Source: Amphiscolops sp. MND2022
Lineage: Eukaryota
Direction of reading: 5' to 3'
Assembly (NCBI GenBank): GCA_964187785.1
Contig: OZ076409.1
Location: 78,866,001-78,930,000 of the forward strand
DNA: 64,000 bases
The translations under genes were made by a program, and so were the position numbers. Position 1 is the stretch's first letter; each line of letters starts with the position of its first letter. The notes beneath the pieces were generated by a model. The model was not told the origin of the DNA. It made no database searches and was given only the letters and a program-made list of their open reading frames with translations. Positions 20,501 through 58,034 of this stretch are shown in pieces.

Positions 20501-23500
20501 CATGTCATTTTGGACTGCATTTGGCCGGAGAAGAGGTCGCAGATGATTGAATTGTTGTTCTTCAGGTGCGCCGTCCACTGTTCGTCGGCAACATCTCTGT
20601 CTTCGCGACCATCTGCCTCGCCTGAATCAGACTAAAGTGTCCACGGAAAATTAAACTCTTTACTTATTCAATCCCATTCAAAAAATGTCAAGTTTAACGG
20701 GATGTTTCACTTTCAGGTGCTAGAATCAAACGTCAAACCAGCCATTCGTTAGATTTGTACTTGAGACCTAATGCTTCGTGTGTATGTGTTTTGTACTTTT
20801 AGTGTTTCATTTAAAACTAGTATTAGTTAAATTAGTATTAGTAAAATTAGTATTTAACCTATCACATTCGAAATATCTAAATTGCACCATTGGAATAATG
20901 CTAACCTAGAGTTTGATAGGATTTGTTGTGAGTGACCCGGTTGAGGTCTTCGTGCAGCAAGTCAAGAATGGCCTCCAGCATTTCCTGGGCGTCGTGCTGA
21001 CTGGAGTTGTTGAATTGGGATCTGTGTTTGATTATTGCATCTCGGATGATAGAGGGTCTCACCACTGAATTGTTACTTGACCACAACTGTTGAACTAAAT
21101 GTCCGTAACACAGAGCAACCTGTCCTTTCGACCCGTCAACGTTCTTCCTGTTAATAGAAAAATCCAGTGTAACCAAATAAAAATGTTTGAGTGGAAAAAG
21201 CATATCATCAAGATGAAATTTGAGTTTTTAGTATCTATTTAAAACATGTGTTTCAGGAAGCAATTTTGAATAAGACATCCGACATCGCGTTTTCTTCTCA
21301 TTTTTTCATTCAGAGTACATTTAATTCGGAAGATGAATGTCCCTTTGACGAATGTCATCTTTCAGAAAAATATTTATTCAGAAAAACAATAGGTTTAATT
21401 GATAATTATTCATCTTATCTGCTCTAAGGCTGAATTCGGATTTCATTTCAAGATAATAAAGATGCTCAATCAAGAAAATCAACTGAATCGAAAACATCGT
21501 TGCCGCGATAATTGAACGTAAAATGGCATTAAACAGACTTTTTGTCTTCACCTGAATTTTTTTGGGACTACCTCCTGCCCGGGTTCATAAAGGCCATAGA
21601 ATGGAGACAAAAGAAACGACAAAGTTTAATTTCGTTGAATTGCAGTTTCACTTTTTACCAAGACAAAATTTTTATTTCCGTTTCGAATCAGAATTCAGTT
21701 TTCAAAAATAGGCCCCTGCGGGGCACATTATTATTTCTGCTTTTGGGCTTTCGTGTTCAATAATAGAAGCATATCTGGAATAACCAACACTCCTGTTTAA
21801 TCACTATATAGCGCACAATTAATCACTGTATCAGTTTACACTGCCTTTAATTCTTCTCGGGCTAAGAAAATATAACTACTAAGCTACTAAGCATATACGC
21901 AGTTTCGCATTCGGATTTGAATCCAGGCGAAGCTCTCAGCGAACGAATAATTAACACTCATTCGCTTCATCTCAATCAATTCGGTGTACGAATGCATAAT
22001 TCACACTCGCTCGCTTCATCGCACGAGAATTGAATTGTCGTCGGCAGCTTGAGAAATTTCAATCTCACGCTTATACTCACTGTCGAACAAAATATCTGAA
22101 TTTTTCAGTAGGTACTCGGATCACGAACAGAGTCGACTAAAAAAAGTTACATCTTTGAGTAAAAGACGACCACTGAACACCGGGATATATTGATGTCGAA
22201 GTAATGAATGACGGAAAAAGACGATACCTTATACTCCTTCAGAAAAATTATTCCTCGGTCGTAAAAAGGAATTCAAATTGATCAATGCTAAAAAGTTCTG
22301 TTTCATACTTTCACGAACTACGGTGTGACATCAAGGCAGTTCAGCTCACGAGAAACCATCCAAGCCAAGAGCGTTTGCAACGTATCACGAATGTTCACGC
22401 CAAAGAACTTTGTTGGCAACCAACAAAAAAATTGAAATAATCTTTGTTTCAACTTCAGCGTCGTTTCAATTTCAATTTATACCTCTAGAAATGAAAACGA
22501 AGATTTATTTCTTACAGCATCAATGAAAAAGCCGACATTGTGAATCATTAAGAATCAATGATTCGTGTAACTGTTACAACATTGGTCTTGGTTGTTAGAT
22601 ACTTCATTTTCGGAAGCGTTTTTGTTCATACTGTAAAATCACAGAACGCACACTCACTTCCCACAATTTCAATTTTCAATTTCTTTATGTCGAAACTTTC
22701 AGCAATGAAGTAATGTGTAACAAGCTAAGTAGAACTTACATGTTGATTTCGTAGAAGTGTTTGTTGTTTAAGAAGTAAGTGGTAAGGGCGTAAGTGTGAC
22801 TGAGACATTGCAAAGCAGAATTCATGAAACAAGTGTTGCCAATGTTGTGCAGACCGGCTTGGCCTGCTCGAGACTCTAGCTGGGCCCCGTTAGGGGATGA
22901 CGTGTTGCCTTCTTCGTTGTCGGTGCCACTGGAACTGTTGGTCTGGAGCAACACTTCGGGCCAACCCAGGTTGTGCCGCAGCTCGACCAGAAGCGAATCT
23001 CCACTCTGGATGCCAGCCTCGTAGAGCGTAGTAGACTCGTCCCGGAGCAGAATCAGACAATCCTGAAAGAACTGAGGTATACTTTTTTCAAGTTTGGTAT
23101 TCAGTCGTACCGGGGGCACACTTATGGCCAAGATAACCAAACCGAACAAAAAAATTTGAGCAAAAAATCAGCTAACTTATATAATGGAGAACTGCAATTT
23201 TTCGCACATGAAATTCTAACACACGCTTGTCGAAGTCAAATATGATGAAAACTTTGAATTATCAAAATGTAGATACTCAAGTCATCAATTTCATTGAATT
23301 ATTGCATTGCATGATCAATTGAAGAAGCATGAAGTTTTTCCCAAAAAAATTCATCTCGAATTGTCCTCGCACATTATAGCAGACTCACCCTCTAACGCAG
23401 TCCAATTTTAGTTAAGATATAAAGGTTTTTGCGTACCACACAAAAAAACGAGTTCAAATGACGAAGTACATTTAGGTCAGTGTGCATATTTTCTTGAACT

Positions 23501-35500: not shown

Positions 35501-38500
35501 GTGCGAACATTTCGCCAGTCATCTCTTCGCTTGCTGATGCTGACAAGGCCCCTGACTAAATTATCGAAGGATAATCCGTCGTTGCTTCCACCAAACGCGT
35601 AGAAGAGGAACTGGAAAACGAAGCAGTAGGTAATTCATCAAACATATTATGCTAGTTTTCTTTGAACGAATACAAAACTAATATTATCTTGGGTCACATA
35701 TCAAAAAGACGAACAGCTACAAATACATCAATTTCTATTACCAAAAAGCCAAAAAAATGCAAAAAATTAAGCAATTTCCCTCTTGACAGTGACAAGTGAC
35801 TAGGACAAATTATTCTACCCAAACGAATCAAATACTATGCAAAAATTAGCCGTTCGAAAGTTTTGAGCACTGGGGAGCAGTGTTGGTAAAAAAAGTTTAC
35901 AAAACCGTTTGAAACTGTTTTTTAATTTGTGTTTTTTTCTCCATTGAAAACAAAATGAATGAAAAATTCATTTTCATGGAATGAAAAATAGGCCCCTCCG
36001 GGGCTCAGTACTATTTCTGCTTTAATCTTTATTTTTTTAAAACAAAAAATCATTAATAAAAGAATCATATCTGGAATACCAATACACTCCTGTTTAATCA
36101 TTACTTAGAGCACAATTAATCACTGTACAAGTTTACACCGCCTTTAATTCTTCTCGGACTAAAGAAAATATAACTAAGCGTAGACGAAGTTTCGCATTCG
36201 CATTTGAATGCAGGCGAAGCTCTCAACGAACGAATAATTAACACTCATTCGCTTCATCTCAATGACGTCAGCATACGAATGGATAATTACCACTCGCTCG
36301 TTCTATCGCACTAGAATTGAATTGTTGTCGGCAGCTTTCCCACGCTTACACTCACTGCCGAACAAAATATCTGAATTATTCAGTAGGACGAAATTTGACG
36401 ACTGAAAAAAAAAAAGGACCAACTTTGAGGTTACAATAACATTCCTGCTAAAGCAGAAATATTAAAAACAAGACACCCGCTGAGCAGCGAGATATTTTCC
36501 GCCCCAAACTATTCTACAACTACATAAATTTGAGGCTCAAGAATAGCCACTGCACTATATAAACGCAAAGAAGTTCGAAGAAGAGAAAGCTTTGATTCAT
36601 CTTAGCCCTTTTTGAAGAAAACCCCTAATTATTTCTGCGGAAGCTGGCCACTTTTCGTTTTTTCAGCACTATGCGAATTAGCGAGAAAAGAGAAAACTTT
36701 TAATGAATTTTTTAAAAATAATTTTCGAAAAACATTTTTTTCAATTTTTTAGTTTTTTAGGTTTTCTGTAAAGGAAATAGGTTTCCCGAGTCTGGAGGTG
36801 ACTTCTTTGTTACTTTTGATCATATGGACCTGATGAGGTTTCTTATTGATTGCGGAAATTACCTCATTTCAGTTTTTTCGACTCTTTGCGTCTTTCCGAA
36901 ACTTTCATTTGGTCAAAGAGTACCCCCTTGCTTTCATAGCTGATTTCGGCTTAAGAGTACTTTTGGGAGCTGAAACTCGTTTCGCCATCATAGAACTTTA
37001 CTGGGAAGAAATCGAAAAATTGGATTTTTTGTGATTCCTGTTGGGCAAAAAGTGGTTCCTAGTCTCAGGCGTATTTCTTGAGGTACTTTTTGGCACTTAG
37101 AAAAGGGTAAAAGCTTGAAACTAGGTCCTTTGCAAATTCAGGAAAGTTGAGCGATCCCGGTTTGTTAAATTACTGCACATGGTTTCACCAGATCTGTCAA
37201 AAATTGGAAATAGTTTCGACAACTTTGGGGTCAACTTGAGTAACTTTTCTAACATGAATCTACAGAAGTCTCTTCAAAATTGAGCCTACTGTACACCGAG
37301 TTTACCTGTTGTTGAAAGTTTACACCATTCTAACCCACGAAGTAGATCGAAACATATCTTTGGAGGGTGTACTTCGTATCTAGCGAATTTGCTTGAAGGT
37401 TTCTGAACATTAAATATTGGACAAATGAGGTCGAAACTTGCGTTATCAAGAAAAGTTTCTGAAAATTGTGCAAATAAACTTCTCTCATTGGAAGTTCTAC
37501 TCTTCAAAAACATCCGTGGTTTGAACAAAAATTGGGATTAGTTTTTCAAACGCGCTTTTTTCTATCATGGTTTTCGGGTGTTTTTGAGGCCAATTCCGTC
37601 AACAAAATGCAGCTATCTCTTCAATATTGCCTACTGGAGATACACGGATTAGTCATTGAGTTTTCAAAAAGTTTATGCAAGGAAGTAGCTCAAAAACTGT
37701 ACAAAAAACTGCCAAAAATGTAGAAAACTTGAAAATGCTCAGTTTTTCCAATATTTGGGTCATTCTGAGGAAACTTTCGACCATAAATTAGACAATATTT
37801 GGAAAAACGTGCTTCGGAAGAAAAAAAACACTGAAAACGTCAAATGGACAAAAATTTTCGACATTTTCAACTTTTTGCGGTCAATTTTGAGCCAATCTCC
37901 AACCGAAGTCTGCCAATATTCCTTTAAAAGCTTTTTGGATAATGAGTCCAGTCTTTGTTGAACCTTTGCCAAAATTCTGACTACAAAACGATTCAAAAAG
38001 TACAGAATTTGCACGAAAACGAAGATGTCGAAATTTTTCGACTGCTTTGGAGTCATTCTGAAGTGCATTTGAAGCGAAACGCTGCAACGTTCTTTTCAAA
38101 AAATGTAATGCATAGCTCGTTCTTGCGTTGTTGATTTGACTGTGTTGGAACTTTGAACGAAATCTCGGAAAATGTACAGAAATTGCATCAAAAACGAGAA
38201 AAACTTTCAGTTGACAAATTTTTATCGACAATTCAGGGTCAATTTGAGGCACTTTTCTCTCACAAATTGAACTTCTCTCGTGACGAAAGCTCACCGAAAC
38301 AACAAGTCTGCCTATGCCTCACGGGTTTCAACATTCTAGTCCACGAAGTCTATCGATATTTTGAGAAAAATTGGTTAAAAAGTGAAAATCGGAAAATTTT
38401 GTAAAATTTGTCTTTCGACGTCAATTCCGGACTTTCGTTCAAAAAACTACATTTATCTCTTTTCCAAGCATAGTGTACAACACATTCTTTCCTTGTTGAC

Positions 38501-41500
38501 CCTTTTCAACGTTCTAATACGCGAAGTCTGTCGAAAATTAGGAAGAAAATGCAAAAAAAATATTTTTGAAAATTGGAAAATTTTGAGTTTTTTTTGTAAT
38601 TTTCGGTGTCAATTTGAGACATTTTCGTTCAGAAAATTGCAATAAACTCTTCAGAAAAGACTACTGGACAACCAAGCCTTTCCTTGTTGACCCCTTAAAA
38701 CAATCCAATCCACGAAGTCGGTCAAAAATTTGACAAAAAATGCGTAAATACATTGAAAAATGGAAAATTTTGGGATTTTTGTCATATTTCGGTGTCAGTT
38801 TGAGATTTTTTTCAGTTGGAAAACAACAATTATCTCTTCGGAAAAGCGTACTGGACAACGAATTAGTGCCATGTCGAGCGTTTTCAAAATTCTAATGCAC
38901 GAAGTCTATCGAAAACTTGACAAAATTGCATAAAAACGTTAAAAATCGGGAATTTTTTGTCATTTTTGGGTCTTTTTCTTTCCAAAAAACGCTTTTATCT
39001 CTTCATAAACGACTACTGGACAACGAATTTTTGCCTTGTTGAACCTTTTCAACATTCTAGTTCACAACATCTATCGAAAAAGTGACAAAATTGCATTAAA
39101 AAGTAAAAAAAAATGAAACTTTTGCAAATATTCTTTGGGTTATTCTGGGGTCTTCGTGGTCAACAAAAAAGTCCAGAATTCTCCACAAACACAAATCGCA
39201 CGAAGCTAAACCTTTGTGAGTTGAATTCTATGGGTAACACGCTTAAAGTTAAACAATAATTTGGTGCTTGGCAAATTTTGTAAAAAAAACCGTTTAATTT
39301 AAATATTTTCCTTTCCCATATATGAAAGATGGGCGGAAAATAATAAAATTTGAAGGTTCTCTTCACTACTGTGTGCCCCTTTTGGCTTATATGATAGTTT
39401 TGAATAGGAAAAGCGTTTTTAAGTCTGAAGGGTCACCTCTTGGGTTTTTGACACTGTGCGACTTTCATGGCAAAATTTTCATTTCCCAAATGGTTCTCGC
39501 TTCCCTAATATTTTCCCTTCCTATAAGAAATATGGGCGGAAATAACAAATTATTTAATCATTCAACTAGCTCAAACAAAAGGCAAGTTTTGCAACTTTTT
39601 CAGCCAAAAGTCTGTTCCTCAGATCACAATAAACAAAACCCATACAAAATGTGCACTTCTGTCGAAGTCAGCCAATACAGGGTTGAGTTTTCTCCCCCTA
39701 CTTGTCATATATTGTGAATAAAAAACATCTAAATAAAACAGACAAAAAATACAAGTGCTTAAAACAGGCCCTGTTTAAAACATCCCAACCCTCCTGGAGA
39801 ACTCAACAAAATAAAAACAAGCCGGGAATGGCACAAGTCGGCGTCATATCTAATGCTCAAAAATAGCAAAAGGATTTGAAAGTGTCAAGTATTCTCTTCT
39901 ACAATACCCATAAGTTGGACCGCATTTCGGATTTTCGATTTTTTTCAATAATGTATCCGGTAAGTCGCATAGTTTTTAAGATATACAGAAGTCATAGCAT
40001 GTTTCGAAGCTAGAAACAAGTTTTCAATATGTATGAACAACTTCTCCAGTTAGAACAAGTCACGCTTTTTTGTATTTTAGCGGGAGATAACCATTACCTT
40101 CTGATGTTTATTTTGTAAATCACTTTTGTGTTAACTTCTCTGAAGACAGTTGAATTGACACTACCAAATCTTCGTCTCACTCAGCCTCAAAAGTCAAAAG
40201 GTTATGCGGCCTTAACCAATCATCTGAAACTAAGGCTGCTGTCAACTTTCGATGGGAAGTTACTTGCCAAAGATAGACTGAGAAATGAAGCGAATGATGG
40301 CAAGCAGAAGCGAGAAGAAAGAAGTCAAGCAGAAAGAAGCAATCTTTTTCCAGTGAACCACTACGCCATGCAGTCAGAAGTCAACTTTGACAGATGAGAA
40401 GCGAGTGAACTTTTCAAAACAGACTCAAACTTTCTTGACGCTTTTGTAAACTTTCTTGCGGTTTTTCCTAGGCTGAGTAGAGTTGAGTTTGAAGTTAACT
40501 GAGAGTACACATGGGTAAAAAAAGTATTTGAAAAATTTTCTCGGAAGATTCCAAAACACTTCAGTAAAAAATATCTAGGCTCGACAAAAAAATCTTAAAA
40601 GACAATTTTTCTGACAGACGTTTCGATAACATTTCTTTGTTTTGGTTGATTTCCAAAGTGCACGTCGCTATGCACTGCATAGCATGACGAGAAGTAAGAA
40701 TTTTCCGAGCTTAGTTTTTGCTTCAAAACGCCAGTCATTCGAGTTTTTTTGTAAGTTGTTTTTGCGGTCCAGAGATACGTCGTTTTATGTAAAACGATCG
40801 AAGCAACATTCTCAGAAGGTCAGGTTGGAGGGTGTACTTCGTATCTAGCGAATTTGCTTGAAGGTTTCTGAATATTAAATATTGGACAAAAGAGGTCGAA
40901 ACTTGCGTTATCAAGAAAAGTTTCTGAAAGTTGTGCAAATAAACTTCTCTCATTGGAAGTTCTACTCTTCAAAAACATCCGTGGTTTGAACAAAAATTGG
41001 GATTAGTTTTTCAAACGCGCTTTTTTCTATCATGGTTTTCGGGTGTTTTTGAGGCCAATTCCGTCAACAAAATGCAGCTATCTCTTCAATATTGCCTACT
41101 GGAGATACACGGATTAGTCATTGAGTTTTCAAAAAGTTTATGCAAGGAAGTAGCTCAAAAATTGTACAAAAAACTGCCAAAAATGTAGAAAACTTGAAAA
41201 TGCTCAGTTTTTCCAATATTTGGGTCATTCTGAGGAAACTTTCGACCATAAATTAGACAATATTTGGAAAAACGTGCTTCGAAAGAAAAAAAACACTGAA
41301 AACGTCAAATGGACAAAAATTTTCGACATTTTCAACTTTTTGCGGTCAATTTTGAGCCAATCTCCAACCGAAGTCTGCCAATATTCCTTTAAAAGCTTTT
41401 TGGATAATGAGTCCAGTCTTTGTTGAACCTTTGCCAAAATTCTGACTACAAAACGATTCAAAAAGTACAGAATTTGCACGAAAACGAAGATGTCGAAATT

Positions 41501-44500
41501 TTTCGACTGCTTTGGAGTCATTCTGAAGTGCATTTGAAGCGAAACGCTGCAACGTTCTTTTCAAAAAATGTAATGCATAGCTCGTTCTTGCGTTGTTGAT
41601 TTGACTGTGTTGGAACTTTGAACGAAATCTCGGAAAATGTACAGAAATTGCATCAAAAACGAGAAAAACTTTCAGTTGACAAATTTTTATCGACAATTCA
41701 GGGTCAATTTGAGGCACTTTTCTCTCACAAATTGAACTTCTCTCGTGACGAAAGCTCACCGAAACAACAAGTCTGCCTATGCCTCACGGGTTTCAACATT
41801 CTAGTCCACGAAGTCTATCGATATTTTGAGAAAAATTGGTTAAAAAGTGAAAATCGGAAAATTTTCTAAAATTTGTCTTTCGACGTCAATTCCGGACTTT
41901 CGTTCAAAAAACTACATTTATCTCTTTTCCAAGCATAGTTTACAACACATTCTTTCCTTGTTGACCCTTTTCAACGTTCTAATACGCGAAGTCTGTCGAA
42001 AATTAGGAAGAAAATGGAAAAAAAAATATTTTTGAAAATTGGAAAATTTTGAGTTTTTTTTGTCATTTTCGGTGTCAATTTCAGACATTTTCGTTCAGAA
42101 AATTGCAATAAACTCTTCAGAAAAGACTACTGGACAACCAAGCCTTTCCTTGTTGACCCCTTAAATCAATCCAATCCACGAAGTCGGTCAAAAATTTGAC
42201 AAAAAATGCGTAAAAACATTGAAAAATGGAAAATTTTGGGATTTTTGTCAATTTTCGGTGTCAGTTTGAGATTTTTTTCAGTTGGAAAACAACAATTATC
42301 TCTTCGGAAAAGCGTACTGGACAACGAATTAGTGCCATGTCGAGCGTTTTCAAAATTCTAATGCACGAAGTCTATCGAAAACTTGACAAAATTGCATAAA
42401 AACGTTAAAAATCGGGAATTTTTTGTCATTTTTGGGTCTTTTTCTTTCGAAAAAACGCTTTTATCTCTTCATAAACGACTACTGGACAACGAATTTTTGC
42501 CTTGTTGAACCTTTTCAACATTCTAGTTCACAACATCTATCGAAAAAGTGACAAAATTGCATTAAAAAGTAAAAAAAATGAAACTTTTGCAAATATTCTT
42601 TGGGTTATTCTGGGGTCTTCGTGGTCAACAAAAAAGTCCAGAATTCTCCACAAACACAAATCGCACGAAGCTAAACCTTTGTGAGTTGAATTCTATGGGT
42701 AACACGCTTAAAGTTAAACATTAATTTGGTGCTTGGCAAATTTTGTAAAATAAACCGTTTAATTTAAATATTTTCCTTTCCCATATATGAAAGATGGGCG
42801 GAAAATAATAAAATTTGAAGGTTCTCTTCACTACTGTGTGCCCCTTTTGGCTTATATGATAGTTTTGAATAGGAAAAGCGTTTTTAAGGCTGAAGGGTCA
42901 CCTCTTGGGTTTTTGACACTGTGCGACTTTCATGGGAAAATTTTCATTTCCCAAATGGTTCTCGCTTCCCTAATATTTTCCCTTCCCATAAGAAATATGG
43001 GCGGAAATAACAAATTATTTAATCATTCAACTAGCTCAAACAAAAGGCAAGTTTTGCAACTTTTTCAGCCAAAAGTCTGTTCCTCAGATCACAATAAACA
43101 AAACCCATACAAAATGTGCACTTCTGTCGAAGTCAGCCAATACAGGGTTGAGTTTTCTCCCCCTACTTGTCATATATTGTGAATAAAAAACATCTAAATA
43201 AAACAGACAAAAAATACAAGTGCTTAAAACAGGCCCTGTTTAAAACATCCCAACCCTCCTGGAGAACTCAACAAAATAAAAACAAGCCGGGAATGGCACA
43301 AGTCGGCGTCATATCTAATGCTCAAAAATAGCAAAAGGATTTGAAAGTGTCAAGTATTCTCTTCTACAATACCCGAAAACCCAAAAGTTGGACCGCATTT
43401 CGGATTTTCGATTTTTTTTCAATAATGTATCCGGTAAGTCGCATAGTTTTTAAGATATACAGAAGTCATAGCATGTTTCGAAGCTAGAAACAAGTTTTTC
43501 AATATGTATGAACAACTTCTCCAGTTAGAACAAGTCACGCTTTTTTGTATTTTAGCGGGAGATAACCATTACCTTCTGATGTTTATTTTGTAAATCACTT
43601 TTGTGTTAACTTCTCTGAAGACAGTTGAATTGACACTACCAACTCTTCGTCTCACTCAGCCTCAAAAGTCAAAAGGTTATGCGGCCTTAACCAATCATCT
43701 GAAACTAAGGCTGCTGTCAACTTTCGATGGGAAGTTACTTGCCAAAGATAGACTGAGAAATGAAGCGAATGATGGCAAGCAGAAGCGAGAAGAAAGAAGT
43801 CAAGCAGAAAGAAGCAATCTTTTTCCAGTGAACCACTACGCCATGCAGTCAGAAGTCAACTTTGACAGATGAGAAGCGAGTGAACTTTTCAAAACAGACT
43901 CAAACTTTCTTGACGCTTTTGTAAACTTTCTTGCGGTTTTTCCTAGGCTGAGTAGAGTTGAGTTTGAAGTTAACTGAGAATACACATGGGTAAAAAAGGT
44001 ATTTGAAAAATTTTCTCGGAAGATTCCAAAACACTTCAGTGAAAAATATCTAGGCTTGACAAAAAAATCTTAAAAGACAATTTTTCTGACAGACGTTTCG
44101 ATAACATTTCTTTGTTTTGGTTGATTTCCAAAGTGCACGTCGCTATGCACTGCATAGCATGACGAGAAGTAAGAATTTTCTGAGCTTAGTTTTTGCTTCA
44201 AAACGCCAGTCATTCGAGTTTTTTTGTAAGTAAGTTGTTTTTGCGGTCCAGAGATACGTCGTTTTATGTAAAACGATCGAAGCAACATTCTCAGAAGGTC
44301 AGGTTGGAGGGTGTACTTCGTATCTAGCGAATTTGCTTGAAGGTTTCTGAATATTAAATATTGGACAAAAGAGGTCGAAACTTGCGTTATCAAGAAAAGT
44401 TTCTGAAAGTTGTGCAAATAAACTTCTCTCATTGGAAGTTCTACTCTTCAAAAACATCCGTGGTTTGAACAAAAATTGGGATTAGTTTTTCAAACGTGCT

Positions 44501-47500
44501 TTTTTCTATCATGGTTTTCGGGTGTTTTTGAGGCCAATTCCGTCAACAAAATGCAGCTATCTCTTCAATATTGCCTACTGGAGATACACGGATTAGTCAT
44601 TGAGTTTTCAAAAAGTTTATGCAAGGAAGTAGCTCAAAAATTGTACAAAAAACTGCCAAAAATGTAGAAAACTTGAAAATGCTCAGTTTTTCCAATATTT
44701 GGGTCATTCTGAGGAAACTTTCGACCATAAATTAGACAATATTTGGAAAAACGTGCTTCGGAAGAAAAAAAAACACTGAAAACGTCAAATGGACAAAAAT
44801 TTTCGACATTTTCAACTTTTTGCGGTCAATTTTGAGCCAATCTCCAACCGAAGTCTGCCAATATTCCTTTAAAAGCTTTTTGGATAATGAGTCCAGTCTT
44901 TGTTGAACCTTTGCCAAAATTCTGACTACAAAACGATTCAAAAAGTACAGAATTTGCACGAAAACGAAGATGTCGAAATTTTTCGACTGCTTTGGAGTCA
45001 TTCTGAAGTGCATTTGAAGCGAAACGCTGCAACGTTCTTTTCAAAAAATGTAATGCATAGCTCGTTCTTGCGTTGTTGATTTGACTGTGTTGGAACTTTG
45101 AACGAAATCTCGGAAAATGTACAGAAATTGCATCAAAAACGAGAAAAACTTTCAGTTGACAAATTTTTATCGACAATTCAGGGTCAATTTGAGGCACTTT
45201 TCTCTCACAAATTGAACTTCTCTCGTGACGAAAGTTCACCGAAACAACAAGTCTGCCTATGCCTCACGGGTTTCAACATTCTAGTCCACGAAGTCTATCG
45301 ATATTTTGAGAAAAATTGGTTAAAAAGTGAAAATCGGAAAATTTTCTAAAATTTGTCTTTCGACGTCAATTCCGGACTTTCGTTCAAAAAACTACATTTA
45401 TCTCTTTTCCAAGCATAGTGTACAACACATTCTTTCCTTGTTGACCCTTTTCAACGTTCTAATACGCGAAGTCTGTCGAAAATTAGAAAGAAATTGCAAA
45501 AAAATATATTTTTGAAAATTGGAAAATTTTGTCATTTTGTCATTTTCGGTGTCAATTTGAGACATTTTCGTTCAGAAAATTGCAATAAACTCTTCAGAAA
45601 AGACTACTGGACAACCAAGCCTTTCCTTGTTGACCCCTTAAATCAATCCAATCCACGAAGTCGGTCAAAAATTTGACAAAAAATGCGTAAAAACATTGAA
45701 AAATGGAAAATTTTGGGATTTTTGTCAATTTTCGGTGTCAATTTGAGATTTTTTTCAGTTGGAAAACAACAATTATCTCTTCGGAAAAGCGTACTGGACA
45801 ACGAATTAGTGCCATGTCGAGCGTTTTCAAAATTCTAATGCACGAAGTCTATCGAAAACTTGACAAAATTGCATAAAAACGTTAAAAATCGGGAATTTTT
45901 TTTGTCATTTTTGGGTCTTTTTCTTTCCAAAAAACGCTTTTATCTCTTCATAAACGACTACTGGACAACAAATTTTTGCCTTGTTGAACCTTTTCAACAT
46001 TCTAGTTCACAACATCTATCGAAAAAGTGACAAAATTGCATTAAAAAGTAAAAAAATGAAACTTTTGCAAATATTCTTTGGGTTATTCTGGGGTCTTCGT
46101 GGTCAACAAAAAAGTCCAGAATTCTCCACAAACACAAATCGCACGAAGCTAAACCTTTGTGAGTTGAATTCTATGGGTAACAAGCTTAAAGTTAAACATT
46201 AATTTGGTGCTTGGCAAATTTTGTAAAATAAACCGTTTAATTTAAATATTTTCCTTTCCCATATATGAAAGATGGGCGGAAAATAATAAAATTTGAAGGT
46301 TCTCTTCACTACTATGTGCCCCTTTTGGCTTATATGATAGTTTTGAATAGGAAAAGCGTTTTTAAGGCTGAAGGGTCACCTCTTGGGTTTTTGACACTGT
46401 GCGACTTTCATGGGAAAATTTTCATTTCCCAAATGGTTCTCGCTTCCCTAATATTTTCCCTTCCCATAAGAAATATGGGCGGAAATAACAAATTATTTAA
46501 TCATTCAACTAGCTCAAACAAAAGGGAAGTTTTGCAACTTTTTCAGCCAAAAGTCTGTTCCTCAGATCACAATAAACAAAACCCATACAAAATGTGCACT
46601 TCTGTCGAAGTCAGCCAATACAGGGTTGAGTTTTCTCCCCCTACTTGTCATATATTGTGAATAAAAAACATCTAAAAAATAGGCCCCTCCGGGGCTCAGT
46701 ACTATTTCTGCTTTAATCTTTATTTTTTTAAAACAAAAAATCATTAATAAAAGAATCATATCTGGAATACCAATACACTCCTGTTTAATCATTACTTAGA
46801 GCACAATTAATCACTGTACAAGTTTACACCGCCTTTAATTCTTCTCGGACTAAAGAAAATATAACTAAGCGTAGACGAAGTTTCGCATTCGCATTTGAAT
46901 GCAGGCGAAGCTCTCAACGAACGAATAATTAACACTCATTCGCTTCATCTCAGTGACGTCAGCATACGAATGGATAATTACCACTCGCTCGTTCTATCGC
47001 ACTAGAATTGAATTGTTGTCGGCAGCTTTCCCACGCTTACACTCACTGCCGAACAAAATATCTGAATTATTCAGTAGGACGAAATTTGACGACTGAAAAA
47101 AAAAAAAGGACCAACTTTGAGGTTACAATAACATTCCTGCTAAAGCAGAAATATTAATAAAACACAAAAAATACAAGTGCTTAAAACAGGCCCTGTTTAA
47201 AACATCCCAACCCTCCTGGAGAACTCAACAAAATAAAAACAAGCCGGGAATGGCACAAGTCGGCGTCATATCTAATGCTCAAAAATAGCAAAAGGATTTG
47301 AAAGTGTCAAGTATTCTCTTCTACAATACCCGAAAACCCAAAAGTTGGACCGCATTTCGGATTTTCGACTTTTTTCAATAATGTATCCGGTAAGTCGCAT
47401 AGTTTTTAAGATATACAGAAGTCATAGCATGTTTCGAAGCTAGAAACAAGTTTTTCAATATGTATGAACAACTTCTCCAGTTAGAACAAGTCACGCTTTT

Positions 47501-50500
47501 TTGTATTTTAGCGGGAGATAACCATTACCTTCTGATGTTAATTTTGTAAATCACTTTTGTGTTAAGTTCTCTGAATACAGTTGAATTGACACTACCAACT
47601 CTTCGTCTCACTCAGCCTCAAAAGTCAAAAGGTTATGCGGCCTTAACCAATCATCTGAAACTAAGGCTGCTGTCAACTTTCGATGAGAAGTTACTTGCCA
47701 ACGATAGACTGAGAAATGAAGCGAAAGATGGCAAGCAGAAGCGAGAAGAAAGAAGTCAAGCAGAAAGAAGCAATCTTTTTTCCAGTGAACCACTACGCCA
47801 TGCAGTCAGAAGTCAACTTTGACAGATGAGAAGCGAGTGAACTTTTCAAAACTCAGACTCAAACTTTCTTGACGCTTTTGTAAACTTTCTTGCGGTTTTT
47901 CCTAGGCTGAGTAGAGTTGAGTTTGAAGTTAACTGAGAGTACACATGGGTAAAAAAAGTATTTGAAAAATTTTCTCGGAAGATTCCAAAACACTTCAGTG
48001 AAAAATATCTAGGCTTGACAAAAAAATCTTAAAAGACAATTTTTCTGACAGACGTTTCGATAACATTTCTTTGTTTTGGTTGATTTCCAAAGTGCACGTC
48101 GCTATGCACTGCATAGCATGACGAGAAGTAAGAATTTTCTGAGCTTAGTTTTTGCTTCAAAACGCCAGTCATTCGAGTTTTTTTGTAAGTAAGTTGTTTT
48201 TGCGGTCCAGAGATACGTCGTTTTATGTAAAACGATCGAAGCAACATTCTCAGAAGGTCAGGTTGGAGGGTGTACTTCGTATCTAGCAAATTTGCTTGAA
48301 AGTTTCTGAACATTAAATATTGGACAAATGAGGTCGAAACTTGCGTTATCAAGAAAAGTTTCTGAAGTTGTGCAAATAAACTTCTCTCATTGGAAGTTCT
48401 ACTCTTCAAAAACATCCGTGGTTTGAACAGAAATTGGGATTAGTTTTTCAAACGTGCTTTTTTCTTTCATGGTTTTCGGGTGTTTTTGAGGCCAATTCCG
48501 TCAACAAAATGCAGCTATCTCTTCAATATTGCCTACTGGAGATACACGGATTAGTCATTGAGTTTTCAAAAACATTCTCAGAAGGTCAGGTTCGCCAGAC
48601 TTAGTTTTGAGTGTCTTCCCTAATTTGCACAACTCAGACATAAAATGACAAACGTACCGTACAGTCTACGTAGAAACGTTGTTGTTTTCGGGAAAAGACG
48701 AGGACTTTGAATATTTTGCTGAACGTTTTGAAGTTCGGCTTCATTTATTAAAACTGAGAACAGTCCTTCTTGATCAGGAGAATTTGTCTGAGGAAGAAAA
48801 ACAAGTTGAGAGAAAAACGGTTCGAAGTTTGGTGTGAGCTGGTGCAATGTCTAGATAGAAAGTCATTGAGTTTAGTAAAAACAGCGAAACCTAACGGTAC
48901 TAAGACTTGGAAACTTCTGCAAGACTGTTTTGAAAATAGTGAACGTCCTCGTATCCATCAACTGTTGAATAAGTTAACGAACCTTAGATTGAACTCACAA
49001 GAAAGTATGCGCGACTATTTGATGAGAGCTGAAGAACTTCAGCTTAACCTAACCGATGTTGGAGAAAACGTTAGTGATCAAATGCTATGTTCTGTAGTCT
49101 TAAAAGGTTTGCTGAACAGTTTCGCAAGTTTCGCAACTGTTTTCAAGTTTTCGCATGAAGATAAAACATTTGCTGATCTCAAAGGAGACCTTTTGAATTT
49201 CGATAGTGATAGTTGCCGAGGTCAAACCGACGAAGAAACAAGTTCACATTTCACTAAAGACGTGAAATGCTTCAAGTGTGGTAAAATTGACCACCGACAA
49301 AGTGAATGCAGAGCAAAAGTGTCTACCTTAGTGTGTTACGCATGTGGTAAAAAAGGCCACAAGGCGAGTGTACAAAAAAGAAAAATAACTCGAAAACAGG
49401 AGCTCCGCGTTAGACGGCTCAAAACAAACATTTTTACACAAAGCAACATAAGCGTAATCTAACAGCTGAAAAACAAGGTTTTTCGTTTCATACTAGCCAA
49501 GCACATTCGACGGGTAAGTTGCACGAGTCCATGATCAAGGACGCTGAATTGTTCGAAAATGGTTATAGTTCAATGTGCAAACAGAACTGAATCCAGTACT
49601 GAGGGTAGAGGTTTTTAGTTTTTTTGGCAAAAGACAATCAAGGCCAAGACTAATCTTGAGCTTGAAGAATCGTTGTACGTTCCCCAGTAAACAAAAAACT
49701 TAGTTTCGATAAAGAAATAACGAACAAAACACGAGCGTTCATTTTGATGCAAACCCTCGCATAGTTCAGGATGATAGATTTCCGTTAAAGTGCGAAAATA
49801 ACTTTTTTGCTTGCAAGTTGATAGTTTGCATGAGCAAAGCAATGCAGCGACTGCAAGTCTTCAACAATGGCATGAAAGAATTGCTCACAATAACAATATT
49901 GATCGAAATTTGGCAAAAGTTGTAGTCAATATGAAAAAAGTAGATGAAGGAAACGAAGCTTGCGACGTGTGTAACACCGAAAGAGCGAAGAGGTTACTCA
50001 TAAGCCGTGAAGTAGCAACTAGAGCTAAAAAACCTTTAGACATAGTCCACGTGGATATATCGCCAGTGAACACGACGTCGATAGATGATTTCAAGTACGC
50101 TCTAGGATTCGTTGATAGCTTCAGCAGATTCGGTGCAGTTTATCTACTAAGAACACGAGCCAAGGTCGGACCGAAGCTTTTGAGGTTCATAGCTGAGCTT
50201 GGAAAACCTCGCAAGATTGTCACTGATAACGCTAAAGAGTTCAAAATTGGAACGAACGGTCATAAGGACTTTGGAGCAAGTTGGGTAGATGATTTAGTCT
50301 ACTGTAGCGACGATAATAATTTTTATGAAACCTTTGAGAAAACACTGAGCAAAAAAATTTTGATCAGTGAAGTAGATGACTTGAACTGGTTCTTGGGAAT
50401 GCAAATTAGACGTGGAAAAGGCAGACTGTAAATTTCTCAAGAAAACTACATCGAAAAATTACTTGAATATTTTGGAATGAAGGATGCCAAAGGTCTTTTC

Positions 50501-53500
50501 ACGCCTGTTGCTGAAAAGCCACAAATCAGTAAGTCAGATTGTCCTGACAAAGGCAGCCAAGAACAAAAGATGAAAAATTGTAATTTTCGTGGAATGATGG
50601 GTTGCTTGAATTACTTAACGAACACGACAAGACCTGATAAAACTTTCGCTGTGACAGCTCTAAGTCGTTACGTTCAAAATACAGGCCGTGAACATTGGTT
50701 ACAAGGAAAACACATCTTGAGGTATCTAAAGGCCACAAAGTGTAGGAAACTGGCGTATAGAAAATCCGAAAAACTCGAGCTCACAGGTTTCAGTGATGCC
50801 GATTGGGCAGGAAAGTTAGATGATAGGAAGTCCAGCAGTGGCTTTTGCTTCTTTCCAAACTCAGAATCAGGAGCTATCGGTTGGAGTACTAAGTTACAGA
50901 CAACGGTTGCGACTCCAACAGCTGAGGCAGAAGCAATGTCGTTATTTGCAGCTTCTCAAGAACTTGAGTTTCTACGAGGACTAGAATACGGAATAGATAC
51001 GGAAAAGCCTACTAAGATACATGTAGACAATCAGGCGTGTATCGCGATAACCAAAAATACAGTGAACTCTCAGAAAGTGAAGCATTTTGCAATCAAGTTG
51101 AGCTCCATACAAGAAAAAACCGAATTGCGACATTTAGATGTTGAGTTTTGTCCAACCAGTGAAATGAATGCTGACTTGCTAACTAAACCGTTGGCAAAAG
51201 TTAACGTTCAAATGTTCAGCAAAAGACTCTCCGAAGAAAATAACTCGTAATTGAGCTCCAAAAAGGGGGAGTTTCAAGATATATAGAATTCATAGCATGT
51301 TTCGAAGCTAGAAACAAGCTTTTCAATATGTATGAAGTTAGAACAAGTCACACATTTTTGTATTTCAGCGGAAGATAATCATTAAGTTTTGATGTTTATT
51401 TTGTAAATCACTCTTGTGTTTACTTCTCTGAATACAGTTGAATCAATACAACTAACTTTTAGTCTCACTCAGCCTCAAAAGTCAAGAATAGTGCCAAAGG
51501 AAGGGACTCTTGGTGTTTTTTAACATCCATTCTCTTGCGAAATTTCAAAAAAAATTGGAGGAGGGGACCCTTTGGTGAGAAAAAGTTTTGAAAAAGTCTC
51601 ACAATGCCAAAAAAACTAAAAGGGGATCCTTTGGGTTTCTTCAACATTCATTCTGTCGCAAAACTCAAAAAAAAATCGTAAAAACCTCACAAAGCCGGAA
51701 TCACATCCGAACTTTGAAAACGTTATATTCGAAATTTCAAAACGTTATGTCCAAACTTTAAATGTTATATCCGAACTTTGAAAACGTTATATCCGAACTT
51801 TGAAAACGTTATATGCGAACTTTGAAAACGTTATATTCGATCAAAATCTAAATATGCTCAAGTTCTTCAAACAGCTCAGCCTATAAAGCTTATAAAATCT
51901 GTCACTCCATCGCTCTTCAAAAAAGCCGACTAAAGATGAACCGACATTACCAGTAGTTGTTATCTTTGGGCAATAAAGTCTCAGAAAAGCATGAAAAAGA
52001 TCAACTAGAAAATCAAAGTAGGACCATTTTGAAAAATGAAAAGACAAATAGAACCGTCTCAAAACATCAACTTTTCAGCGCTAATTTCTCAGAATAAAAA
52101 GTGACATTGCACTTGCATACAATACACTAAGGATATTCTTTCAACAAGCTGATTATTAACACAAAATCAATTGTTGGCTTAAAATTTCATTTTGGGAATT
52201 ATTGCAAGAATGACTCACCTTTAGGATCAAAAATAGCAGTCAAATTATGTAGAGTCGAATTATTTGGAATCGAATGAAGAAGCGAAAATGATGAATTCAA
52301 TATATATTTAGAAACCAAAATTGGTTGTATGATTCGTCCTTCCTTTTTTCTCTCCTGCATTTAGGGCATTATAGATATAGTGTTTCATTACAGAAACTTA
52401 TCGTTTCATATGCTTGTTTTATATATAAAAATTTTTTACCTCTTTCGATAAAATGAAGTCATAATTGGATCTTAAATAACTTCGCAGATAACTCTGCACA
52501 GCAATTCCGAATAAATATCCAGAATTGCCTGTAATTATGACAACTGTAAAACTGAGTGAAAAGATTGTACTTTATTTATCTCGGTAAAACTGTAACTAAT
52601 CACCTAGCATTCGTCGATGTTCAGTGCTATTGGGATGATTCCTGGTTTTCGGCCAAATATCGAAAACAAAATATCAATATTGATAGATACAACTAAGACG
52701 GGTCTACGTCTAGAAAAGATTTACCAATTATGAAAAATTTGAAAAAAAATAAAATAGCTGTGGGAGTCCTTGAACGCTAATGACTACTGTAATAGATTGG
52801 TACTTACATCTCCAATGGCAGGAGGGAACAGATCGCCCACGACTACATCACTGAAAACGGCCTTTTTCATTTTCGAAGTCAGTTTGTCACAGCATTTGAG
52901 ATACATCTGCCGATAATGTACAGTGTCTATGTCCATTATGGCTAAACACAAAAACTACCATTTTCAGTGAGAATCACACGTTTGTTCTAGCAAAACTAGC
53001 AAATGAAGTAGTGACGTGAAAGATCCTAACTAAATAGTGAGTAATGTTGCACATTCAATAGGCCTATTAAATAAATTCAGCTCGTCAATTTTAGCATCAT
53101 AGTGAGCACGACGTCATGTTCAAAAATGTTGTGAAATAAAATCCATGGTGCGGCGCTAATCCAATAATGTGTAGTCTGTATTTGAGGGTAACAATTCGTT
53201 CATCTACATGTTTCGTTTTTCCTGGAATAAAACAGCAACCTGAACGCTTTTTTCGAGTAATTTTTCTTCGATTCATTTACGATTTACACCCGTTTTTCTG
53301 GCGGTGGGGGGGGGGGGTTCACCTTCCTCTTGGCGTTTCCTGGTGCTGAGACTAATGGAAATTATTCTATCATTTCAAGTGACTTTCTGTTGTTTGTTCG
53401 AATAAAACTCTCGCTCAAATTCAGTCAATTCATTCAATCGAAAACTTTCATTGAGCCAAAGCAGCAAATCTTTTTCAAGTAAAAATTTGCATTGATTCCG

Positions 53501-53797: not shown

Positions 53798-54052
53798 TGA
53801 ATGAAGATCTGATTGCTCACATTTTCAAATCTGAAGAATAAAAATGACCTCAACCATGGCGAGCGTGAATAACGTCAGAGCAATAACATCAAATTGGAAA
53901 ACTTTTTTTCCACTATTAGATATCACGGATCTTCAGCAATCAAGTTCCGTGTCATCGTGTTGGGGGAGAAGACACACACCCGTGGTCTGCACTGAAAGGA
54001 GTATAACAACGGCGTTGTTAGTGATAAGTCGAATGATTGGTGAGATTAAATA

Positions 54053-54133
54053 AGCCATTTGGTCTAAGGGTTAAGGCGCTTGACTGCTAGCTAGATCTGT
54101 CTTGAGATGCAGGTTCGAGTCCTGTAATGGCTA
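54053..54133 (+). tRNA. Class II (Ser/Leu-type) tRNA-like gene in the TRIM 5' LTR, with GCT in a poorly paired anticodon arm
   Basis: Acceptor stem AGCCATT/AATGGCT, D arm GTCT/AGGC, variable arm ATCT/AGAT, T arm GCAGG-TTCGAGT-CCTGT, A and B boxes, TTTT terminator. Confidence 0.75.
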
Positions 54134-54310
54134 TTTTCTCACAATCATGTCGAGCTTGGGTTGTTATACTGGTAGCCATTACATAAGTGGCTTGAATCCC
54201 CAGTTGTGTTGTGTTCAACTGGGAGCTGTGTGGCATCAGCTTCAGTTAGAAGGGGATAATATAACAACGGCGTTGTTAGTGATAGGTCGAATGATTGGTG
54301 AGATTAAATA

Positions 54311-54390
54311 AGCCATTTGGTCTAAGGGTTAAGGAGCTTGACTGCTAGCTAGATCTGTCTTGAGATGCAGGTTCGAGTACTGTAATGGCT
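54311..54390 (+). pseudogene. Second tRNA-like copy in the TRIM 3' LTR, mutated
   Basis: Same sequence with D-stem and T-stem substitutions, and loss of ATTTT (discriminator plus terminator). Confidence 0.7.
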
Positions 54391-54684
54391 CTCACAATCA
54401 TGTCGAGCTTGGGTTGTTATAGGAGGAAACCCCATACCAGCCACTATCCCAGTAGACCAGTAACAACAAAAAACAACCAACCAACTACTCATAGTAGCCA
54501 CTGTCCCAGTCGACGGGTTGAAACAAGTTTCAAAAAAAGCTGCAATTGAAAGAGGTTCCAAATAAGACAATATGTAATAATTTCAAACGCATCTCTTCTG
54601 CTCACAGTTCCTAGAACACAGGCCGCATTGCCGATCTGAAGAGCCAATGAGATCCGTTGCTTCAAAAAGCTGCCAGATCGTTGA

Positions 54685-55034
54685 GGGTGGGCGGAAATAG
54701 GTCGAAGGAACGGGATCGAAAATCAGAGTTAGTCCTCAGGTCGACAATACCAAATTTTTGAATGGGATCGAAACAACTCGGATCGAAATTTTTATAACGT
54801 AGTCAGATATGTTCACATACCCCTAGTGCCCTGAATGCAGGAGCTAAGCGAAGCGGAGCGACGTGCCATATGGCCATGCCTCAATGTTGCTACTTGGCGA
54901 AGGGAGCGAAGCGACCGGGCCATACAATAAATACGATAAAATTCGACCGCATTCCATTCGATCCGTGTAATTCGATCAAAAGGTTCGACCTCAGTCCTTT
55001 CGACCAGAAAAATTCGACCTATTTACAGCCACCC
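54685..55034. mobile_element. MITE with 9-bp TSD (MULE/Merlin-like)
   Basis: TSD GATCGTTGA on both sides; 22-bp TIR GGGTGG..AAATAGGTCGAA (19/22 match). Confidence 0.88.
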
Positions 55035-55265
55035 GATCGTTGATAGTCGTCCGAAAGACAGCATTTTACACAGACGCGTGATGAAAATTTCGCTGCTCTA
55101 GTCTAAAGAACCCGATATTTCCATCCCCACAGGTTGAAAATTGTATCCATTGTCTAGTAATTCGCGATACTTCTCAATCTTATGCGCTTCCGCCTCGGTA
55201 GCGGTGGTTCCCGAGTTGTAAAAGGAGACTTGATTCAGGCAACTGGGAGCAAGAGCATCCACAAC

Positions 55266-58034
55266 TCACACCATTTTGATGAGGCGAAAAAGGGGCAGTA
55301 TGCTCACGTTTGATTCGGTTTGATATACAAAAACTTCGAAAAGACTTGGAAATGTACTCACCCATTATCAGAACGGATCGATCTGGGCGTTTCCACTTGC
55401 GCACTGAATTTATCTAGGCACTCCTCTTTCGATTTGGGGAAATATACCATTGAGTACCTGCTGTAGCTATCCGCAAAAGAAATAGCGTATCGATTACAAG
55501 CGAAGTAGTTGGCATCGGTCCCAAAGTGTCAATGAAAACGAGATCAAGTTTCGAAGATTTTCTTTTCTCCATTTTTCGCGACACTGGTTGCCGTCGTGAC
55601 TTAAAAAATTTTGCAAACTTCACAACAACAAAGTTTATCAAAAGCACTGTGTTTCAAGCTCATTCCCGAAACATGATGAGCCAAACGTTTCACATTTTTG
55701 AAATAGTTGTGACGGCAAACGTGGAATCAGGTCTAATGAAATAGATCTAAGAGAGGGGGCAAAACTGAGATCTAATCAAATTGATCTAAATAATCAGGTC
55801 TAAAAATCTCTTCTAATTTGATCTAATTTGAGGGCGAAAATAACAGAGAGTGGCGAGAAAGTTTTGCCCCCTCTCTTAGATCTACTTCATTGGACCTGAA
55901 TCCACGTAGCCTCTCGGATATGTCCCCATTTTCTCTTGGGGCCGCTTATATTCCCATCTTGCTGAACGAGGTCGAAGAGGAGCAAAGACCTAGCGGGAAC
56001 GGAGATTGCGAAGCGATAGTAGTGGGAGCTGGTCTTTGCGAAGATGAGGGCGAGCATGCATACATCGCATATGCCCCACATTATATTTTCGCTTTCAGAA
56101 GACATAATAGATCATAAAGGGGTTAGACCTAAGTATTTTGTATTTTAGACAAAATTAGATCTGAAAGTTAGACCTAACAGTTAGATCTAATTCCATTAGC
56201 CCCAAGCAATTAGATCAAAGGCGTACACTCCGTTGTGACCAGGGCGATGATGCCACAGCACGGCTTTTTCATTCTCGCCGGAAAAAGAACAACGATCAAA
56301 TGTCTTTCCTTTCAAAACGTAAAGGTTAGCGTGCTCTTCAAAAGGATTAGTTGCTCTTCCATTGAGGAAAATGCTCAGAGATGGACCGAAGTTCACTTGA
56401 GCCTCGTTTTGTCTAAACTTGCTAACGCTGATCACGTAATGAGATTGATCAGGAAGAAAAAGTCGGTCGGAAAATGTCACACAACATTCCATCCCTTCTT
56501 TGTCCAAAAGTAAGGGAGAAACTTTTCGAACACCCTCAACTTGCGAAAAAGTCCATATCGCATTTTTTTACTTTGCGTTGTGTTTATTCGCTGAAGTCGA
56601 AGAACAGAGAAAGGTCAAAAAACATATGGGTGGAAGCACCAGAGTCGATGACCAAAGTTTGCTCCTTCATCTCGCATTTTTCGCTAGTGAGTGCAGCAGC
56701 CTCACTACAATCGCAAAAAAACTAAGTCCTCAGCAAGGTTTGACGCTCCTGTTTCAGCACTTGACCTAGGATTCAAAAGAGGGTTTTTCTTGAAACATTT
56801 ATTCTCTTCATGGCCAAAACGCATGCAAAAGTTGCACTGGGATACTCTACAAGTGGCTTGTTTATGTCCACTTTTACCGCAACGCCTACACTTCCCAGTC
56901 AACTTTTCAGGTTAACACGCGGAACTTTTCGCAACAGTTCTTTGGATAAAAAAGCAACATTTGTTTTGCTAGCTGTCGCAGTTTGTAGGTTACGAGACCT
57001 TTCGAAATTTTTCAATGCTTTCTTTACTTCCGCAAAAGACCCTTTTTTTGGAAAAATTGTGCACAGTTTTGAAATGGTCGTAACCGGAAGGCAAACCCTT
57101 AAGAACTATCGAAGTTTCCATGTTTTCAGAAACTTTCTCAACAGCGAGCTCCAACTGCTTACTCACATACTCCGCTCGAGTCAGGTAGTCAACCATGCTC
57201 TCCCTGGGCACCAATTGCAGGGTTGTGAACTTCTCCAATAGGTTCATCAACCTCGGTGTTTCGGTGCTGTTGAAGTGGTCTCGCAGTAGTTGCCATGCCT
57301 TCGGACCATCACCCTTGCAGTCGTTCGTCAGCATCAGGATACTGCGGCTGTCTAGACACTGTACCAAGTACGCCCGAATTTCGTACTTCTTGTCATTCGT
57401 GCCAGCATCTGTACCATTCAGCACGTTCAGCAGCTTCTTCGTGAAACAGAACCCCTCGAATCGCTCCTGCCACACTACGAAGTTTTCTTCCTTGCCAGAG
57501 AACTGGAGATACTGCAAAGGTCGATCCATTCCTCACAAACTACAACAAAACCCCGAAAGAGAAGGTAGTAACTGAAACAAAAATGGGCAGCAAAACAGGA
57601 ATTCGTACGAAGATAAGCTACAAAGTTAATGGAAGCGAAACGGCGGTAACGGACGGCATAAATAGCAAAAATTGCGCATATCCGAGACGCAAAAAGCAAA
57701 AATGGAGAGCGAAAAATAAGATCAGACGAGCATAGTAAGAGTAAGCAGAAAAAGTTTTTTTTTTAAAAGAAAACAAATTCACCAAATTGCTGGGTCCATA
57801 ACCTATTAGGCCCTGAGCTCCTCCTTTCGTAGATGGGTAGTCGGATTGATGAAGAATGGTTATTGTCAACACTTTATTTTGAGATGTATGTTAAGAAAGT
57901 GATTCGGTCAGGTGAAGATAAAATTAACAGGTACATAATTACAAACAACAAGAATAAACTAAATCAGTTCAGACTGGTATAATCTGAGTTGGTTGACCTT
58001 TAATGGTCCTTTTGACCTTCATTGGTCTCTAACA
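55266..58034 (-). mobile_element. 3'-truncated Ty1/Copia element nested in the CRE LINE
   Basis: 5' LTR at about 58034-57804 starting TGTT, PBS GGTTATGGACCCAG, gag, two zinc knuckles, protease DSGAS, integrase up to APFSPHQNGVS. RT and 3' LTR are missing. Confidence 0.88.
55714..56231. mobile_element. MITE-like insertion in the Copia pre-integrase region
   Basis: 8-bp TSD GTTGTGAC, GG...CC ends, many AGATCTA/AGGTCTA motifs. Removing it restores HHRxGHN|YFKNVKRL. Confidence 0.78.

Follow-up and report, generated by a model that had tools for sequence, protein, structure and literature searches.

A 420-bp TRIM lies at positions 54002..54421 of the window, by which we mean the whole 64-kb stretch of Amphiscolops sp. 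MND2022 contig OZ076409.1 that was analysed. Direct reading of the sequence and alignment of the LTRs bear out the layout given in the initial annotation, in which a target-site duplication (TSD), an LTR, a PBS, an internal region, a polypurine tract (PPT), a second LTR and a matching TSD follow one another. The features, all on the forward strand, are:

53998..54001 (+): 5′ TSD, 4 bp, by direct reading; an exact 4-bp TSD is present in 12 of 24 LTR chains of the family and a 5-bp TSD in none
54002..54168 (+): 5′ LTR, 167 bp, with a 9-bp terminal inverted repeat and TA...TA ends
54053..54133 (+): tRNA-like gene, 81 nt, by ARAGORN and Rfam; proposed primer gene and R region
54060..54070 (+): putative Pol III A-box-like element, from its position in the tRNA model
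54112..54122 (+): Pol III B-box / T loop, by sequence and Rfam model
54134..54137 (+): run of four T (T4) adjoining the discriminator; proposed leaky Pol III terminator
54170..54183 (+): PBS, 14 nt, complementary to the LTR tRNA end plus CCA
54186..54192 (+): 7-nt complement of PBS nt 5–11; predicted local hairpin over the PBS, from folding of copy L003
54248..54259 (+): PPT, by direct reading
54260..54421 (+): 3′ LTR, 162 bp, with a tRNA copy (54311–54390) that lacks the discriminator and T4
54422..54425 (+): 3′ TSD, 4 bp

The element, its family and its surroundings

The internal part of the TRIM measures 91 bp; it begins with a 1-nt spacer between the 5′ LTR and the PBS, and the PPT ends at 54259. 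The LTRs are 98–100% identical over two ungapped blocks. The 3′ LTR is missing 5 nt, namely the discriminator and T4, and carries three substitutions, one of them in the T stem. The earlier statement that each LTR holds an intact tRNA end therefore stands for other copies of the family, which are intact in both LTRs, but not for the window copy, which has kept that end only in its 5′ LTR. LTR ends are TA...TA in the family and TG...TA in some older copies, and not TG...CA. Besides the T4 that follows the discriminator, the 258-bp unit has no run of four T, an absence that is weak evidence when taken alone (P = 0.17).

A search of the 1.07-Gb genome returned at least 75 matches from the best 40 of 644 candidates, the full-length ones mostly 94–97% identical, and the family exceeds 100 copies. 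Its LTR pairs are 82–99.4% identical, and the TRIM has been recently mobile. The 24 LTR chains examined for TSDs come from 23 loci and include, besides the 12 exact cases, four in which the duplications differ by one base; all 12 exact TSDs start with G or C. Intact LTR–PBS junctions number 114 by pattern count, and the 100 that were listed represent about 70 separate sites by eye. Tandem TRIM arrays share LTRs with a period of 258, as in an array of more than 20 units at G000:C11:55.289-55.296 Mb that has a single flanking 4-bp TSD, and among 12 unpaired full LTRs at least one is a solo LTR bounded by a TSD. A search of the genome for a second tRNA-bearing TRIM family yielded none among its 17 matches.

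Several other repeats and genes share the window. Broken Copia-like gag/pol fragments, recognized from their translations, flank the TRIM at 48758–51250 (+) and 56196–57532 (−). Just to its right, at 54660–55100, lies a short inverted-end repeat that other TRIM copies (L012, L027 and L114) also adjoin or lie in; by eye, target preference or co-clustering are both possible. About 37800–48500 is occupied by a tandem repeat whose units measure close to 3.5 kb, the same open frames appearing three times. A very divergent USP32-like deubiquitinase is represented by exon-like frames over 3552–23167 (−), the one frame searched having its best match, at 40%, to an insect USP32. Between these frames is placed a Gypsy element (4763–10998, −) with 202-bp LTRs that are 98% identical, TG...TA ends and a 5-bp TSD; it contains an exact internal 300-bp duplication, and its pol is broken across several frames.

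The tRNA-like gene and its match to the PBS

ARAGORN calls the LTR gene a tRNA of undetermined type, and Rfam model RF00005 scores it at 46.4 bits in the 5′ LTR (cut-off 29) and 26 bits in the 3′ LTR. All 12 of the 12 base pairs in the acceptor and T stems are intact, and the D stem is paired. The anticodon arm, as placed by the Rfam model, is degenerate, with two non-standard pairs and an enlarged loop where a functional host tRNA has a paired stem and a 7-nt loop. From what is established of tRNA maturation, paired end arms together with a broken anticodon arm form the pattern to be expected of an RNA kept for the processing of its ends and not for translation.

Alignment to host tRNAs gave 54/84 identical columns for Arg-CCT, 54/86 for Ser-CGA, 53/85 for Ser-AGA and 51/85 for Ser-GCT, and as a comparison of sequences it does not single out an ancestor, Leu-like, Arg(CCT) and Ser(GCT) origins having each been considered. 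Compared with Arg(CCT), the acceptor and T stems of the LTR tRNA show three double changes and one single change; seven random stem changes would fully keep the pairing in 0.13% of trials (P = 0.0013), a figure to be read with the ancestor uncertain and with descent from a lost functional tRNA giving paired stems as well. Variation within the family showed no extra conservation of the stems across 146 LTR copies and 48 sites, a sample biased by the patterns used to fetch it: variants per site-position were 0.109 in the 5′ strand of the acceptor stem, 0.076 in its 3′ strand and 0.072 in U3. A metagenome scan for the LTR tRNA end gave 0 matches. Two loci (L162 and L174) hold a different tRNA-derived, SINE-like repeat that has no second LTR within 1.5 kb.

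The PBS is a perfect Watson–Crick complement (14/14) of the last 11 nt of the LTR tRNA followed by CCA. Direct comparison thus upholds the central observation of the initial annotation, including that this CCA is not encoded in the gene. The register is exact, the complement of CCA beginning one base past the LTR. By chance, the 11 templated bases would match at a given site with a probability of 5.5e-7 and somewhere in the LTR with one of 1.7e-4, and the duplex has a calculated energy of −23.1 kcal/mol; PBS positions 15–18 mismatch the LTR tRNA. In the genome, the sole 16-mer that joins the tRNA end to CCA sits outside any tRNA, and on the strength of this single match we rejected a genomic CCA-tailed retrocopy of the LTR tRNA.

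In one TSD-matched insertion, which is duplicated at two C7 loci, the PBS is extended in register along the tRNA complement to 38 nt, of which 34 match in L118, and a second PBS follows. Such an extension would fit read-through on a CCA-tailed primer and would equally fit fold-back on the LTR, and is suggestive only. Fold-back inversions at the PBS are present in two further copies (L112 and L161).

Host tRNAs and Gypsy elements as possible sources of primer and proteins

Host Lys, Arg, Leu and Ser tRNA genes were read directly, and none carries the LTR tRNA end; the isoacceptor types seen, four of Ser and four of Leu, end differently from it. Large tandem arrays, each of a single tRNA type (Lys, Arg, Ser or Leu), occur at G000:C7:5.2-5.3 Mb, C7:48.0 Mb, C9:19.1 Mb, C9:57.6 Mb and C11:6.0 Mb, and include many anticodon variants, stop-reading ones among the Lys-type copies. 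Three pattern screens covered the genome more broadly. The first, for a T loop joined to the LTR tRNA end with no T after it, returned 13 matches, all 13 of them element copies. The second, for any T arm and a wobble-compatible acceptor strand without an A two bases before the T stem, returned 34 matches (12 in the control); the 30 inspected comprise nine element copies, eight Arg(CCT) array genes and otherwise non-tRNA sequences. The third, for tRNAs with a short variable loop and an A two bases before the T stem, returned none. The prediction that no host tRNA shares the LTR tRNA end therefore stood in the layouts screened, which leave a gap for tRNAs with a long variable arm or an intron that have both an A two bases before the T stem and a T after the discriminator, and for tRNAs with unusual T loops.

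Arg(CCT) is the host tRNA closest to the PBS. It would pair through G:U wobbles, with three consecutive Watson–Crick pairs and a wobble next to CCA, at −18.4 kcal/mol for the consensus, common form and −22.2 kcal/mol for a variant; it is a real competitor. The PBS departs from Arg(CCT) at four positions, and at each of them it agrees with the LTR tRNA. Of the 116 junctions scored at PBS position 4, 114 carry the LTR-type base, two carry other bases and not one carries the Arg-type base, counts that come from two patterns that differ slightly and fix several other positions. One of the 100 junctions listed has the Arg base at position 10 alone. The exact Arg-type 13-mer occurs eight times in the genome, in none of the eight cases inside a TRIM. 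A search for autonomous elements with an Arg-CCT PBS gave eight matches, five of them in the coding region of one repeat, and was set aside.

Gypsy elements served as controls and as candidate helpers. The PBS of the window Gypsy matches host Ser(AGA) at 14 of 14 positions. In a survey in which 14 regions were fetched out of 150 integrase matches, 1 of 13 Gypsy starts had a PBS matching the host tRNA ends that had been read. One family (L225/L226) is autonomous and about 12 kb long, with 780-bp LTRs and with protease, RT, RNase H and integrase domains recognized by Pfam. The six bases at the 5′ end of its LTR and the eight bases just inside the 3′ end are those of the TRIM; it has the same 1-nt spacer, a 4-bp TSD in nine of nine paired copies, and LTR pairs that are 96.5 and 99.0% identical, pointing to an age similar to that of the TRIM. 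Internal homology to the TRIM is absent, and the PBS is also not shared. Judged from its termini, a Gypsy of this type is the candidate helper. Other members of the family (L233-L250) include one at G000:C3:7.62-7.64 Mb, with a weak Macro-domain match (21.9 bits, cut-off 22) before the integrase.

Among the ten closest Gypsy copies, four have a PBS matching Leu(TAG) at 18/18 positions, four match Leu(AAG/CAG) at 18/18 and two match Leu(AAG/CAG) at 17/18, and no intermediates occur at the two Leu-diagnostic PBS sites. Nine of the ten differ by 1.2–2.7% over about 2.1 kb with the PBS excluded. The Leu(TAG) copies are grouped by none of the 12 commonest shared-site patterns and are scattered on a tree that leaves out three more distant copies. 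Since copies of one family thus carry either Leu PBS, with the TAG copies scattered, primer sequence appears to have entered the PBS at least once, and perhaps repeatedly, in the clade of the probable helper. By the accessible account, yeast Ty1 and Ty3 do not inherit their PBS from the primer (PMC5371799); a PBS that follows its primer in an animal Gypsy clade, unlike in yeast Ty3, is of interest in itself.

We also searched for autonomous elements carrying the TRIM PBS. The 19 matches comprised 12 element copies and seven others, none of which held up: L121 and L122 lie inside a 738-bp repeat without an LTR layout, and L106, whose PBS match is 22/24, is at control level (five matches, one in the control). 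A second search gave nine matches, against ten in its control.

A proposed element-encoded primer and its place among known systems

Taken together, these findings make it probable that the TRIM is a natural LTR retroelement with a gene for its own primer tRNA, and that primer and template both come from this one Pol III gene. Counted in favour are the PBS match of the window Gypsy to Ser(AGA), the switching of the PBS among Gypsy copies, the lack of Arg-type TRIM junctions and the paired stems. Nearly as probable is the more specific form of this proposal, in which the primer is a short RNA made from the LTR gene, trimmed and given its CCA tail, and the template arises when transcription runs past the first T4. 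Pol III would start at the tRNA-like gene in an LTR, and a stop at the first T4 would give a short pre-tRNA that host enzymes could trim and CCA-tail by way of its intact acceptor and T arms. The CCA-tailed RNA, from any 5′, 3′ or solo LTR, would anneal to the PBS and prime the minus strand. Read-through of the first T4 with a stop at the second would produce a template of about 343 nt, in which the tRNA sequence serves as R. The TRIM, being non-autonomous and presumably moved in trans by a Gypsy, would thus bring its own promoter and primer, and depend on others only for proteins and for the enzymes of tRNA processing. Counting against an element-encoded primer, RNases P and Z would cut the read-through template too, and some of it must escape.

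These data have to be weighed against other origins of the self-match. A host tRNA with an identical 3′ end may have been missed or left unassembled, in which case the TRIM would be an ordinary Helenus element and its LTR copy a captured primer gene acting as a promoter only. The gap in the screens, a possibly incomplete assembly and the restriction of direct reading to the Lys, Arg, Leu and Ser families all leave room for such a tRNA, and the paired stems would call for no selection if a functional tRNA had been captured. We nevertheless regard this origin as unlikely, as the three screens span most tRNA layouts and returned, as tRNAs, only element copies and Arg-CCT, the Ser and Leu types seen end differently, and no autonomous element was found with the TRIM PBS, though a normal host primer might attract one. 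Slightly less probable again is priming by Arg(CCT) through G:U wobbles with the PBS not rewritten, the self-match being a relic of shared ancestry or the product of fold-back conversion. In its favour are the duplex energies of −18.4 to −22.2 kcal/mol; Arg-CCT is the top-scoring host tRNA against the LTR tRNA, fold-back rearrangements at the PBS exist, and non-inheritance of the PBS is documented in the accessible work on yeast (PMC5371799). Against it stand a stretch of only three consecutive Watson–Crick pairs with a wobble beside CCA, the exact match of both Gypsy families checked to host primers, and the coincidence of every PBS difference with the LTR tRNA. Moreover, if Arg(CCT) were the sole TRIM primer, Arg bases should have entered the PBS and stayed there, given primer-to-PBS transfer in the probable helper clade, yet Arg-type junctions number 0 of 116; this argument relies on the helper belonging to the L225/L226 clade.

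The primer may also be encoded by the element in a different form, as the CCA-tailed 3′ end of the full-length RNA acting in cis or in an RNA dimer, with no free 84-nt RNA. The 3′ end of a read-through RNA would carry the same acceptor stem and T4, an acceptor-like helix closes that RNA in its predicted fold, and co-packaging of the primer would be explained. We consider this form improbable: the 3′ R, which the first strand transfer requires, would be unwound during priming, and RNase P should release the tRNA from the longer transcript. The least credible account is that the self-match is kept for a cis fold-back that covers the PBS in the template RNA and has no bearing on the primer. The PBS and the tRNA end are 36 nt apart, as such a fold-back would suit, but in the predicted fold of the 343-nt template (copy L003) the PBS pairs with its local 7-nt complement, at a probability of 0.85–0.99, and the LTR tRNA strand is not its partner; this speaks against a cis fold-back as the cause of the self-match. 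Such an account also names no primer and gives no reason for the 5′-side changes in the stems.

LTR elements and retroviruses characteristically depend on a host tRNA for priming, and an element with an encoded primer would be freed from the host tRNA pool. It could also use the proteins of its helper without competing for the helper's primer. The PBS is in addition a control point for the host, 3′ tRNA fragments having been reported to silence LTR elements and retroviruses through it, as far as the accessible text goes (PMC7472051); with a private primer, the PBS would not be fully matched by any host tRNA fragment.

A parallel in origin of the primer is Tf1 of fission yeast, which primes on the first bases of its own transcript without a tRNA fold, CCA or a Pol III gene. 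Tf1 and, as proposed here, the TRIM thus both draw the primer from the element's own RNA. The tRNA independence of Tf1 is stated in the accessible text of PMC5371799. An engineered counterpart is found in MLV vectors, in which, by the published text available, an artificial PBS works with a matching engineered tRNA (PMC3185771). Common to both systems is a PBS without a natural tRNA match, primed in trans by a tRNA-like RNA (in the TRIM, by proposal); in the MLV system the primer gene is engineered and sits on a separate construct, whereas in the TRIM it would be natural and inside the LTR (PMC3185771).

Small-RNA genes in the LTRs of TRIMs have precedents. Cassandra and Ajax are 5S-bearing TRIMs, the LTR gene serving as a Pol III promoter, and transcription of Cassandra begins at the gene in the 5′ LTR and extends into the one in the 3′ LTR, according to the sections of Kojima 2024 available (PMC10886601). 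These elements carry 5S where the TRIM carries a tRNA, and the PBS of Ajax is assigned there to host tRNA-Leu (PMC10886601).

The closest relative in anatomy is Helenus (TRIMp3). The TRIM resembles it in size, LTR tRNA, PBS, PPT and TSD length, the tRNA-like sequence and the 4-bp TSD having been named in the initial annotation: it is a non-coding element of less than 1,000 bp with two LTRs, a tRNA-derived LTR sequence, a PBS and a PPT, and a 4-bp TSD. The paired LTRs, PBS, PPT and fixed-length TSD rule out a tRNA-derived SINE. Shared with Helenus, on the accessible description, are a length below 1 kb, the tRNA-like LTR sequence with a B box and an A-box-like motif, PBS, PPT and the 4-bp animal TSD, as well as tandem arrays, solo LTRs and Gypsy as the presumed helper (PMC10886601). 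Of the box motifs found in most Helenus families, box B GGTTC is exact in the TRIM, and box A (TRGCY...YGG) differs at one position of TRGCY; YGG in box A is present in an older variant (18 of 47 sites) and absent from the window copy. Animal Helenus PBSs were assigned to host tRNAs, and the available text of Kojima 2024 reports that the LTR tRNA-like sequence was not found to be complementary to the PBS (PMC10886601). This property, which is reported but is not part of what defines the name, is where the TRIM departs: unlike in Helenus as described there, its PBS matches its own tRNA at 14/14 positions, no host match was found, and its ends are TA...TA (PMC10886601). A search of the Helenus supplement with four TRIM motifs gave no homologous match, and the portion examined shows no self-match by eye (PMC10886601).

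In the full-text literature searched, which has most subscription journals outside it, no description of an element-encoded primer tRNA was found. Together with the accessible report of no self-match in Helenus, this agrees with the earlier impression that a self-supplied primer is apparently undescribed. If the proposal is correct, tRNA-bearing LTRs gain a second purpose, one that the paper defining Helenus sought but did not find. The TRIM is an element of the Helenus/TRIMp3 kind with what is probably a new mode of priming.
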